Shown in pieces: positions 22,601 through 25,255 of a DNA stretch of 32,252 nucleotides (the stretch's first letter is position 1; every line of letters starts with the position of its first letter). Origin of the DNA: an uncultured Ignavibacteriales bacterium (lineage in GTDB: Bacteria > Zixibacteria > MSB-5A5 > GN15 > FEB-12); NCBI GenBank assembly GCA_964464605.1, contig CAYXJN010000007.1, forward strand, positions 186,001-218,252, in the 5' to 3' direction. The position numbers were made by a program.

Positions 22601-25255
22601 CCGGTTGGATACGCAAGTGCATCGACAATCCCATAATAACCGGCCTGACTAGCATAGTCTGATGCACTCAGCCCGGCGATGTCCCGCAGACTTGGCTCAG
22701 CGCCATAATCCAAAAGAGCCGCGACAACATCCGAAAAGCCCTTTGACGCCGCGTATATCAGAGCAGTGGTGTTGTCCGGGCCGAGCCGGTTCGGATCGGC
22801 ACCCGCTTTGAGCAACAGCAAAACTGAGGATAAATCACCGGCAGCGGATGAATATATCAGCGTGGTAAATCCGTTAAATGCAGTCGCATTCGGGTTGGCT
22901 CCTAATGCCAATAACGCCTGCACCGCTTTTACCTTGCCAAATGCCGCTGCTTGTATGAGTACTGTTTCCCCGGAATCGTTTGTTTGCTCGATTTGGTAGC
23001 CGGCCTGGGCAAGCAGTTTTAATATCTCCCCATTTCCCCGTTGTGCCGCGTCAAACGCAGCCATTCCACCGAACATATTTTTCGCGTTCGGGTTCGCTCC
23101 AGCAGCCAGTAAAGCTTTGACCATCTGAGCATTGCTAATACGGGTAGCCAAGATAAGCGCATTATCCCCGGCGATGTTGGCTCCCTCCACATTGGCTCCG
23201 GCGGCCAAAAGAAATTTGACCGTGCGAAGATTATTGGTAGAAATAGCGACCATAAGTGGTGTTTCAGTGATATCATTCGCGGCGCTTGGATCCGCTCCTT
23301 TTTGCAAGAACTCGCGTAGTTTAGTCGTGTCACCACCGCTAAAGCGTATGGCGTCAAAAAACTCCTTTTTCGTATCCTGCGCAAAAGTCAGAATTGGAAA
23401 CAGAAAAATAATGAGCCCACTGAGTATTCGCTTTGTCATGCTATCCCTTCCTGCGTGTTAAAAAGCATCATGAACTGCGGTAAATTATAGGATGGGTTAC
23501 GCCGGTCAAGTGAGTTCTTAAGCAGGCGGAATCCGTCAGAAAATGACCGAAACAACTAATTCCCGGCGGGCATTTTCTTATTCTTCTTCAGGTATTTCAA
23601 GAAGGAGTCCATGCTTTGTGATTCGGCAAACTTGCGAATGCGACGGAACCCCTCGCCGTACAAAAAGTCCGTATCGGCTTCAGCCGATTGTCGAATATAC
23701 TCAGCCTCTTTTGAAGTGAAATCATTCATAACAAGCCATCCGATATAGCTGATACTACCGGTATGAAGCATCTGCTCTGCGTTCTTTTTGCCAAACCGAA
23801 ACAGCCAAAGACTCATCATGGACTGGGATAAAATGTACGCGGCTTCGGCTCTTGGAAGACCGTACAGCAAATACACGTCTACCTGCCGGTCGACCGGAAT
23901 AAGACCAAACACAACCCGGCTCTCTTTAAACGCAGCATATCCCTTGAAACGAAGGCTATTTGAGTTTCCGATTTCGGCCAACTCGCCTCGGTAGACCAGG
24001 TGGTTGTCGGCTGCATCGAATGGGACATCGATACCTTTGTTCAACAGCGATTGACGAATTTCCTGAACCAGTTGATTCATTTGTTCGAGGGTGGTGATTG
24101 CTGTTTTCCCGCAAAGTCCGCATATCCAGCGACCGTCGAAGTACATTTGGCCGCTATCAGAGGCGGCACAAACAAATCTCTGGCATGACACACATTCCGG
24201 CACGTGTCCGCGATGTGACAAATGATATTGATTTCCCCAGTAATCCGTGATGTATTGTCCTTCGATAATTTCACGACAGACCGTGCAGTGAAGCGCGACC
24301 TTATTGTTGTAGCAGGAATCATGGTAGCTCTTCCCTTCAAATGTAACATACCTGCTATCAATTATAGTACTGCATGCGGCACATCTGGGGCCAAAGAGTT
24401 CGAAATAACAGGTCTGGTCATAGTGTTTATCCTTCTCTTTAAAATACTTCTCACCCCCAATCGATTTGTCGCAATTGGCACAGCGAAAATGGGTGGCACA
24501 GTAATAGTTCCCGTCTACCTCAAAAAACCGAGTCGTCTGCACCGGTTTCTTGCAATAACCGCAGATTTTTTCAGCGGCTAAAAGCGTATCAACGGAAATG
24601 AGGCAGAAGACAGAAAGGAACAAAAGAAAAGATAATCGCCGTACGATGCGTGTAGTCACGACCTAACTCTAATTCTTTAACAGCGCAGTGTACTTAACAA
24701 TGACAGAACCGAGTTTTTGCACCTGTTCGTCGGTTTTCGGATCCTTTATTTTACCGTTTTCATCGAAAGCTTGATCGGCACGGGGGATCATCACTTGATT
24801 CGGCAAAACAATCAGACTGACCGCATTCAGCGTTTCGCGGAGCATAATCAATCCGCGCACGCCGCCGAACATCGTGCCGGATGCACTCATTATAACAGCC
24901 GGCTTGTGTAGGAAACTATCGTAACGAGGAACACCGGGAAGCGGGCGGGAAACCCAATCGATCATGTTTTTCAACACGCCGGGAATGCCGTAATTGTACT
25001 CTGGTGATGCGATCATGAAACCGCTATGCGAAAGAAAAATCTCCCGCAGCTTCTTTGCATTTTCCGGCCAGCCGTGAGCAGTTTCAAGGTCAGCGTCGTA
25101 AAGTGGGAGCGGATAGTCACGCAACTCGACAACCGTTACATCAGCGCCCGCGGCCCGCGCGCTATCCGCAGCGATACGAATCAGCTTACGATTAAAGGAT
25201 GCCTCTCGGGTACTCCCTGCGAATGCCACAATGCGCGGTCTTTCGGCCATGACTA

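Follow-up and report, generated by a model that had tools for sequence, protein, structure and literature searches.

Loss of all four catalytic residues in a LIM and DA1-like domain protein of a wastewater Zixibacterium, a probable exported pseudopeptidase

What role remains for a peptidase-like protein whose active site has been replaced is the question raised by a gene at positions 23556..24659 (minus strand) of the window, the whole 32,252-nucleotide stretch of DNA analysed here. The host is a wastewater Zixibacterium (genome G000; 2.82 Mb, completeness 100, contamination 0). An earlier note on this DNA had placed here an open reading frame of 367 amino acids, and the frame is indeed intact, comprising 367 codons and a stop. 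It opens with a GTG that lies 9 nt past the stop of an upstream FMN-reductase gene, and the relatives P0003 and P0004 share that starting point. Taking the evidence as a whole, we favour, with moderate confidence, a catalytically dead pseudopeptidase that persists as an exported protein with a binding or regulatory role.

Domain analysis revealed five CxxC/H zinc-knuckle pairs, comprising two Pfam LIM stretches and a LIM-like module, fused ahead of the peptidase domain. The claimed LIM domains (PF00412) were recovered at 8.9e-11 (42.3 bits against a cut-off of 22.9, two stretches) with ligand spacing of the C2HC/C4 type, so far a predicted zinc-binding arrangement. The first LIM domain spans residues 33-89 (24393..24563, minus strand; C33, C36, C54, H57, C60, C63 and C84), contains the best Pfam LIM stretch and conserved Cys columns, and matches LIM folds in the PDB. 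The second LIM-type module, residues 93-149 (24213..24383, minus strand), carries C93, C96, H113 and C116 followed by C125, C128, H146 and H149, and coincides with the second Pfam stretch and with conserved columns. The fifth pair, residues 156-183 (24111..24194, minus strand; C156, C159, C180 and C183), forms the LIM-like module that adjoins the peptidase domain and is invariant in 54 sequences. The 13 invariant Cys columns reported before were reproduced in a 12-row alignment; over 54 sequences, seven Cys columns are invariant and seven nearly so, and every zinc-knuckle Cys and His is present in the query protein. A profile of the family matches the LIM chains of paxillin, PINCH and CRP1 in the PDB (3e-23 to 1e-20), and Foldseek returned LIM4-5 of PINCH1 at 5e-9.

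The remainder of the protein, residues 189-367 (23559..24095, minus strand), is a DA1-like domain of gluzincin fold. The Pfam DA1-like match (PF12315) claimed earlier stands at 28.7 bits against a cut-off of 25, its best stretch covering only residues 313-358 (profile positions 166-211 of 213). Structural comparison extended the assignment to the whole domain. In VIA-align searches with the AlphaFold2 model (pLDDT 94.5, pTM 0.82), residues 189-367 matched the catalytic domains of M1 aminopeptidases with Z 11.6 to 10.6 over 151-153 residues (rmsd 2.7-2.9), led by 1z1w_A (Z 11.6, rmsd 2.7, 153 residues). Further matches over residues 187/189-367 were 8sw0_A (Z 11.2) and thermolysin 5a3y_A (Z 8.7). 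Likeness of fold is no sign of activity. Two TFIID entries, 6hqa_A (Z 9.1) and 5fur_I (Z 7.9), were also matched; both presumably contain the M1-like pseudopeptidase TAF2.

Within this fold, all four catalytic residues have been replaced. The segment S278-Q-S-M-M-S283 reads as described previously, with QSMMS in place of HExxH at Q279 S280 M281 M282 S283 (23811..23825, minus strand; codons CAG TCC ATG ATG AGT). Position 279 is H in 150 of 151 homologues, position 280 is E in 148 of 151 and position 283 is H in 149 of 151. Overlooked until now, the third zinc ligand is lost as well: T300 (ACC; 23760..23762, minus strand) replaces the Glu of the xEGS motif, which is E in 147 of 148 homologues (E300T). 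The family's zinc site is nearly invariant, as the earlier note had it, with H, E, H and E in 139 of the 142 sequences, among the 150 best hits, that cover all four catalytic columns; its count of 115 HE[LMIV]xH sites among those 150 has to be corrected to 134. The closest relatives, P0003 (58% identical) and P0004 (55%), retain HELMH. By contrast with these positions, the family motif YGEGFRR at residues 334-340 (23640..23660, minus strand) is kept, Y334 G335 E336 G337 F338 R339 R340 being invariant with the relatives and Y334, G335, G337 and R339 in the 12-row alignment. Among full-length representatives, replacement of the whole site is seen in just one more, P0032, which has K, Q and Q at the HExxH positions and keeps the third-ligand E. 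P0046 was considered as a further independent loss and rejected, as that one residue is all that separates it from P0159, which has HEWMH.

With both His ligands, the catalytic Glu and the downstream Glu replaced, the protein should be unable to bind a catalytic zinc or to activate water as its relatives do, and we regard it as very probably inactive. The earlier verdict that it cannot be a zinc peptidase is supported for a peptidase of the family type and is strengthened by E300T. Hydrolysis through other residues (such as H299, Q279 or a Ser) or a different metal geometry would nevertheless be conceivable in a fold that is wholly kept, where T300 has H299 beside it and Ser and Gln side chains border the vacated site. 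We consider this highly improbable: we know of no gluzincin that is active once the HExxH pair and the Glu ligand are gone, and the column of H299 is variable in the family (commonest E 26, C 23, A 14). Proteins of the plant DA1 family, moreover, carry AHEMMHA--EE as their active site, and DA1 loses its activity on H-to-A or EE-to-II mutation, according to the available portion of a preprint (bioRxiv 10.1101/2022.06.21.497003). A more trivial explanation would be an assembly or binning artefact, either the chimeric consensus about which the earlier note had worried or a compensated frameshift, given that the genome is a MAG and that an A8 homopolymer splitting the neighbouring gene could point to indel errors. 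The odd site is not such an artefact, a possibility we rate as next to negligible. Neither alternative frame contains HExxH (one yields a stop-containing peptide, the other VHFIPVHDES), and the six residues that differ do so by many base changes, E-to-S and E-to-T requiring 2-3 each. Contigs from three runs of three studies (X13, X14 and X15) cover 23811-23825 with 0 differences, although X13 may be a source of this DNA, and the exact protein occurs on 13 contigs.

The family to which the protein belongs is large. Searches of 1.84 billion representatives with phmmer again gave 1691 hits at E<=1e-3 and 157 at 1e-30, with 527 at 1e-10, and the proposed homology to DA1-like peptidases is confirmed by PF12315 matches in 53 of 54 family members (best E 1.8e-19). 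Of 285 genomes of the phylum, 101 have members, as do 41 of the 107 that belong to the host's own family; Ignavibacteria, Latescibacterota and Krumholzibacteriia have members too. The family proteins inspected from Zixibacteria genomes reach at most 39% identity to the query, and a metagenome scan for the DNA of close relatives returned only one distant locus (32%). Of the earlier description as a large unnamed family, the second adjective does not hold: Pfam covers the family, one source names a member 'protein DA1', and bacterial homologues are in print. Prokaryotic LIM domains were reportedly described by Burroughs, Iyer and Aravind, in 2011, as partners of membrane-associated peptidases. 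The accessible part of Dong et al. 2017 mentions bacterial (Roseiflexus) homologues that carry a LIM-like domain, citing Burroughs et al. 2011, while an extract of one survey (Zhao 2014) calls DA1 peptidases plant-specific. Full-text literature searches for bacterial LIM-peptidases returned plant work only, and the available sections of PMC4506424, PMC3710099 and PMC4999995 hold nothing on them. Because bacterial DA1 homologues have been published and Pfam covers them, the query is best seen as a rare variant within a family that is known but uncharacterised.

Within the host genome, a profile built from 54 family members detected one family locus and no second or active paralogue. A six-frame search of the genome with PF12315 was uninformative, as it returned nothing, missed the known gene too and left its controls empty. 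The genes next downstream encode an ankyrin protein and then a cytochrome c, both with hydrophobic N-termini, and the ankyrin gene looks split at the A8 run. Eighty family loci were again obtained from genomes, in line with the number given before, but neither Hadarchaeota nor Cloacimonadota are among them; ours were retrieved with other patterns ([AS]HELMH[VLA]W and EGS[CA][NS]YA...), which bias the set towards active forms and make it unfit for counting losses. Clustering of 773 ORFs around these loci revealed no specific conserved partner: ankyrin, FMN reductase and cytochrome c neighbours occur at 0 of 80 loci and an enolase neighbour at 3 of 80, and the largest neighbour cluster (23 loci) is, by eye, seemingly joined by a common C-terminal sorting-type domain. 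No wider synteny with G004, G015 or G022 was found. Scans for promoters (13 versus 9.1 +/- 3.1) and terminators (10 versus 8.0 +/- 3.3) did not rise above shuffled sequence, PADLOC did not match the protein, and NCBIfam gave no match below E 0.9. A complex prediction that paired residues 30-367 with residues 21-445 of the neighbouring ankyrin protein, run without controls, gave no answer (score 0.00) and is evidence neither way.

The signal-peptide-like N-terminus noted previously is borne out by our own heuristics and is common to about 120 of 157 family members. Residues 1-29 (24573..24659, minus strand) comprise three Arg, a 15-residue uncharged run and then TLLA/AE; small residues precede the first CxxC, with TLLA immediately before A29. 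Family N-termini show the same layout: the uncharged run has a median length of 15, and the charge averages +1.7 on the N-terminal flank versus +0.1 behind the run. The N-terminal extension is absent from 27 of the 157 members, so the family is not uniformly exported. For the query itself, these features suggest export, most likely through a Sec-type cleavable signal peptide. LIM-type Cys-rich zinc fingers are unusual outside the cytoplasm, an observation that counts against export.

That observation bears on a different topology, in which the N-terminal helix would be an uncleaved membrane anchor, or export would follow the Tat route, with the LIM fingers folding around zinc in the cytoplasm, so that location and topology would differ from those of a simple Sec-exported periplasmic protein. 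The cytoplasm would be the easier place to load zinc fingers, residues 2-26 form one helix in the AlphaFold2 model, the query's N-terminus contains R7-R8 followed by LSFL, and the genome encodes TatC (5.7e-68). Against this, the 15-residue uncharged run, in the query as in the family median, is short for a membrane span, and RR occurs in only 15 of 123 family N-termini, none of which fits [ST]RRx[FILV][LIVMF]; Tat export was accordingly rejected as a family trait. We therefore hold the anchor or Tat arrangement to be distinctly unlikely.

A slightly more serious challenge to the reading as a retained binding protein, though still an improbable one, is that the gene is on its way out, its peptidase inactivated, its product functionless and its frame merely unbroken so far. 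It is the sole copy in its genome; with no active paralogue and no conserved neighbour, no partner is in sight. The patchy presence of the family in the phylum implies that loss is common, and the neighbouring ankyrin gene is apparently split. The query's end branch, about twice as long as those of its active sisters (0.42 versus about 0.21-0.23), fits some relaxation, and P0032, found on one contig only, provides no clade of conserved inactive copies that would prove retention. The distribution of changes nevertheless argues for a targeted alteration of the active site rather than general decay. The frame is whole over 367 codons, and the changes are gathered at the four catalytic positions: 11 of 17 conserved peptidase-domain columns are kept, all six deviations falling at the active site, as are 22 of 24 conserved LIM columns, where one difference is only the GTG start and the other a Cys for His common to the active sisters. 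No zinc-knuckle Cys or His has been lost. With active-site positions excluded, the query is 46.2% identical to the outgroup P0009, versus 48.3% for P0003 and 52.3% for P0004, and for the LIM part 52.8% versus 55.3% and 56.6%, only 2-6 points under the active sisters. The same sequence recurs in runs of several studies, and the multiple-step codon changes at the site point to long survival since inactivation. Over 1401 nt, only three SNPs were found (one synonymous, F214Y and H79Y) in a nearly clonal population; we thus infer selection on the dead domain only from the retained columns and the modest branch lengths.

Collectively, these features suggest that the query is most likely a non-cutting binding protein. 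The protein would be exported by its N-terminal signal, its five LIM-type zinc-knuckle pairs packing against a DA1-like gluzincin domain whose cleft, with Q279, S280, S283 and T300 in place of the catalytic residues, is predicted to be dead. Fingers and cleft together may then engage a ligand, whether peptide or protein, within the cell envelope, and the protein would serve in binding, scaffolding or regulation and not as a protease. As the genome has no other family member and the sequence is kept outside the active site, the protein presumably still performs the part of the family's task that needs no catalysis. More speculatively, and with considerable doubt, the Zixibacteria-type family could be an extracytoplasmic LIM-guided protease system whose zinc fingers function outside the cytoplasm. 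The query would then be a natural 'substrate trap' that, in the periplasm or at the surface, has come to serve as receptor or regulator for this family's putative protein ligand, a bacterial counterpart of DAR3, DAR7 and DAR4.

In plants, DA1 peptidases attract study for their part in regulating organ size and immunity. Among bacteria, the family is common in one phylum and mostly signal-bearing, and rarely is the active site cleanly erased while the rest is kept. The finding is a modest one, a single gene without partner or phenotype, and it supplies, in a natural dead copy and live copies 55-58% identical to it, a ready-made pair for addressing the module's ligand and the presence of zinc in LIM fingers outside the cytoplasm.

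Several known systems offer points of comparison. EnvC and NlpD are degenerate LytM factors, periplasmic pseudo-metallopeptidases that activate amidases. By analogy, the query would be an exported protein of metallopeptidase fold, its zinc ligands gone, that works by binding and regulating; the M23 fold is unrelated, and the query has no amidase or other partner in sight. The best structural match, the M1 aminopeptidase tricorn-interacting factor F3 (1z1w), shares the gluzincin arrangement of HExxH and a downstream Glu; the likeness is confined to the catalytic subdomain, with no M1 N- or C-terminal domains and an identity of 11%, which is noise level.

The plant DA1/DAR proteins (Arabidopsis DA1, DAR1 and DAR2) are closer in architecture, having a LIM domain and a LIM-like region directly before the PF12315 zinc metallopeptidase domain. 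They also share with the bacterial family the order of motifs, AHExMH, a Glu about 17 residues on and a C-terminal YGxGFR-type motif, in what we take to be its plant form. Unlike them, the query begins with a signal-like segment, carries one LIM module more, lacks all catalytic residues and has no UIM family among its Pfam matches at E<=1. Plant DA1 proteins, as presented in the accessible part of Dong et al. 2017, are intracellular, UIM-bearing and switched on by ubiquitylation. The bacterial LIM proteins of Burroughs 2011 (Roseiflexus and others), so far as the available text describes them, belong to the same family and join a LIM or LIM-like domain to the peptidase; they are presumed active, whereas the query has a replaced site. 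According to the portion of bioRxiv 10.1101/2022.06.21.497003 available to us, DAR3 and DAR7 inhibit DA1, and DAR4 has a LIM-peptidase without DA1's activity that keeps the AHEMMHA--EE residues, which the query does not. These plant proteins act on active paralogues in the same cell, and the host genome has none. Even so, DAR3, DAR7 and the integrated LIM-peptidase decoy of DAR4/CHS3 provide a precedent for LIM-peptidase modules that bind or regulate instead of cutting.

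g02019 is a 367-codon open frame at 23556-24659 (-) whose GTG start lies 9 nt past the FMN-reductase stop, with AGG a few bases upstream; its closest relatives, P0003 and P0004, start at the same position. Pfam LIM matched the protein at 8.9e-11 in two stretches (best 33-89) and DA1-like at 28.7 bits against a cut-off of 25 (best stretch 313-358); NCBIfam and PADLOC searches gave no match. The first 29 residues hold three Arg, a run of 15 uncharged residues and TLLA/AE, and precede a zinc-knuckle region (residues 33-183) of five CxxC/H pairs: C33 C36 C54 H57, C60 C63 C84, C93 C96 H113 C116, C125 C128 H146 H149 and C156 C159 C180 C183. 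All of these Cys and His residues occupy invariant or nearly invariant columns, and the subclade of g02019 has one more zinc module than the 320-330-residue forms. In the PDB, Foldseek and a sequence profile matched only LIM proteins; at E<=0.01 none of the matches was a solved structure of a DA1-type peptidase. A Foldseek-independent structure search with the AlphaFold2 model (pLDDT 94.5, pTM 0.82) aligned residues 189-367 with the M1 aminopeptidase catalytic domains 1z1w_A (Z 11.6, 153 residues, rmsd 2.7) and 8sw0_A (Z 11.2) and with thermolysin (Z 8.7), identifying the predicted C-terminal fold as a gluzincin.

Alignment of g02019 with 156 homologues revealed that its peptidase site has been erased. 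Position 279 is H in 150/151 homologues and Q in g02019; position 280 is E in 148/151 and S in g02019; position 283 is H in 149/151 and S in g02019. These columns confirm the HExxH loss reported in the earlier note. Position 300, E in 147 of 148 homologues, is T in g02019, so that the third ligand is lost as well, a new observation that goes beyond the earlier one. All four columns are covered by 142 of the best 150 matches, and H, E, H, E is read in 139 of those 142. The other three are P0032 (K,Q,Q,E; 347 aa), known from a single contig (JGI, 28 kb), P0046 (H,K,H,E), a single variant, since only this residue separates it from P0159 of the same cluster, and the 541-residue P0110 (H,E,H,T), which is possibly misaligned. 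Loss of the whole site is thus uncommon. P0032 reads KQMMQ, keeps the third Glu, and is the only other full-length representative whose HExxH is wholly replaced; it deviates at 8 of the 17 conserved peptidase columns, and its place beside a Calditrichota sequence in the tree points to a probable independent second loss.

The plant DA1 family site is described as AHEMMHA--EE, and H-to-A and EE-to-II mutations of DA1 are described as abolishing activity (10.1101/2022.06.21.497003). The absence of the catalytic residues from g02019, taken with the inactivity of these plant mutants, argues against zinc-peptidase activity of the family type; judged by its sequence, g02019 cannot be a zinc peptidase of its family.

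The codons of the site are TCC CAG TCC ATG ATG AGT, and T300 is ACC; the E-to-S and E-to-T replacements each take two or three base changes. Of the two remaining frames, one yields a stop-containing peptide and the other VHFIPVHDES; neither holds HExxH, which rules out a compensated frameshift. Records of the identical protein exist for 13 contigs, and the DNA is present in 20 sequencing runs from 7 studies (bioreactor, activated sludge, sludge, aquaculture, rhizosphere and wastewater), 12 of these run rows being flagged as possible sources of that DNA. Contigs from three runs of three studies (X13, which may itself be a source, X14 and X15) span 23811-23825 with zero differences; a fourth run, X20, covers T300 but has no contig at 23811-23825. 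Three differences were found in 1401 nt: A242A, F214Y (one low-depth contig) and H79Y.

To weigh retention of a non-catalytic protein against slow decay, we took the columns that at least 85% of the family conserves: 41 in all, of which 24 are LIM and 17 peptidase columns. g02019 keeps 22/24 LIM columns, differing by its GTG start and by a Cys for His common to its active sisters, and 11/17 peptidase columns, with all six deviations at the site (A278S, H279Q, E280S, L281M, H283S, E300T). A quick ML tree with 97 rows groups g02019 with P0003 plus P0004 (SH-aLRT 96) and next with P0009 (SH-aLRT 100); the end branch of g02019 is 0.42 versus about 0.21-0.23 in the sisters. LIM-part identity to the outgroup P0009 is 52.8% for g02019, 55.3% for P0003 and 56.6% for P0004; for the peptidase part, site excluded, the values are 46.2%, 48.3% and 52.3%. 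Identities and branch lengths together indicate mild acceleration in both domains without collapse of the dead one. Slow decay appears rather unlikely, and the sequence pattern favours, but does not prove, a retained, non-catalytic protein. The family profile matches the own genome at exactly one place (2.82 Mb, 18 contigs, completeness 100, contamination 0), so no active paralogue is present.

A phmmer search with g02019 over 1.84 billion representatives gave 1691, 527 and 157 matches at E<=1e-3, 1e-10 and 1e-30, reproducing the first and last counts of the earlier note. LIM and DA1-like each match 53 of 54 aligned members, DA1-like with a best E of 1.8e-19, which makes the family's homology to the DA1 peptidase domain, as judged from these profiles, secure. 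Profile searches placed the family in 101/285 genomes of the window's own phylum, including 75/198 good-quality genomes and 55/130 genera, with a very uneven spread among its families (f4 26/33, f1 41/107, f5 0/21). That phylum is most probably Zixibacteria: genomes of the same order encode proteins identical to some on contigs with Zixibacteria in their title, and the total of 285 agrees with the 284 of the earlier note. Every inspected family protein from the phylum's genomes is at most 39% identical to g02019, and HELMH is kept in 27/27 newly fetched from the phylum. By contig title, the 80 prokaryote loci, collected with active-site patterns and hence biased, are mostly from Zixibacteria, Ignavibacteria/Melioribacteraceae, Latescibacterota and Krumholzibacteriia, with single loci from Calditrichota, Acidobacteriota, Spirochaetales, Opitutia, Neomarinimicrobiota and Sericytochromatia; Hadarchaeota and Cloacimonadota, both listed in the earlier note, are absent from these 80. 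Contigs titled 'uncultured Ignavibacteriaceae/Ignavibacteriales' encode proteins identical to those of genomes assigned to the same order or family as the window (tree rows L083/L013, L055/L006, L091/L007). Because some submitter titles disagree with genome taxonomy, phylum counts from titles are unreliable.

Export features were scored by crude measures of our own over 157 family members. A hydrophobic N-terminal extension precedes the first CxxC in 116-123/157, depending on the filter; the family medians are 30 residues from M1 to the first CxxC and 15 for the uncharged run, and mean net charge is +1.7 ahead of the run and +0.1 after it. The g02019 N-terminus has RR and the own genome encodes TatC; RR occurs in 15/123 family N-termini and a Tat motif in 0/123. 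These features suggest that g02019 is likely exported. Another 27/157 members (P0041, P0055, P0060 and 24 more of P0002-P0158) start at the first CxxC without a hydrophobic N-terminus; they are presumably cytoplasmic, in a layout closer to plant DA1, and some may be truncated gene calls.

g02019 lies in a co-directional run (-) of enolase (25253-26557), FMN reductase (24669-25250), g02019 itself, two ankyrin ORFs (21895-23439 and 20967-22019) and, last, a cytochrome c (20229-20882). The region's best terminator-like hairpin (20206-20179) follows the cytochrome c, with no good one earlier in the run, in a scan that as a whole was not above shuffles. The cytochrome c has a CNDCH haem motif and a hydrophobic N-terminus ending ITC, and is possibly a lipoprotein. 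Of the two ankyrin ORFs, the first has 514 aa and a signal-like N-terminus and the second 350 aa; they share 125 nt (21895-22019), and across an A8 run (21918-21925, -) the second frame carries on an ankyrin repeat that starts in the first. The pair has the look of a single gene of some 800 codons interrupted by a one-base indel, whether through an assembly error, phase variation or a true break. No conserved neighbour emerged across the 80 loci, biased to active-site forms. When L042, L049, L065 and L105 were compared with window 25253-26557, a family member adjoined enolase at three other Zixibacteria loci (enolases 78-80% identical), in opposite orientation at two of the three (L049, L065); at least two (L065, L042) fall in another tree subclade, and identity between the LIM-DA1 proteins is just about 33%. 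Either very fast evolution at a stable position or repeated insertion there would account for this. Pfam at E<=1e-4 found no match for 26739-28697 (+), 28703-30346 (-) and 30663-32075 (+) (652, 547 and 470 aa) or for the smaller ORFs 14956-15681, 15752-16579, 16691-17263 and 17502-17870; a homologue of the 470-aa ORF, 51% identical, lies close to enolase in a genome of the same family.

Our full-text literature searches turned up no study that deals with bacterial LIM-peptidases or with LIM domains of Zixibacteria. Prokaryotic LIM domains were reportedly described by Burroughs in 2011 as partners of membrane-associated peptidases. The earlier observation and reading of g02019 both stand, strengthened by E300T: homology identifies it as a DA1-like family member, and because it fails the catalytic features of the family it is to be filed as a pseudopeptidase, not a peptidase. 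It most likely serves in the cell envelope, in binding or regulation. The family is known but uncharacterised, and g02019 is a rare variant within it. Zhao et al. (2014) describe the DA1 group as plant-specific after a survey of 249 bacterial genomes. Dong et al. (2017) refer to Burroughs et al. (2011) for homologues from bacteria (Roseiflexus) that carry the LIM-like domain. Non-proteolytic use of the plant module is described for DAR3 and DAR7, which inhibit DA1, and for DAR4, an integrated decoy without DA1's activity (10.1101/2022.06.21.497003).
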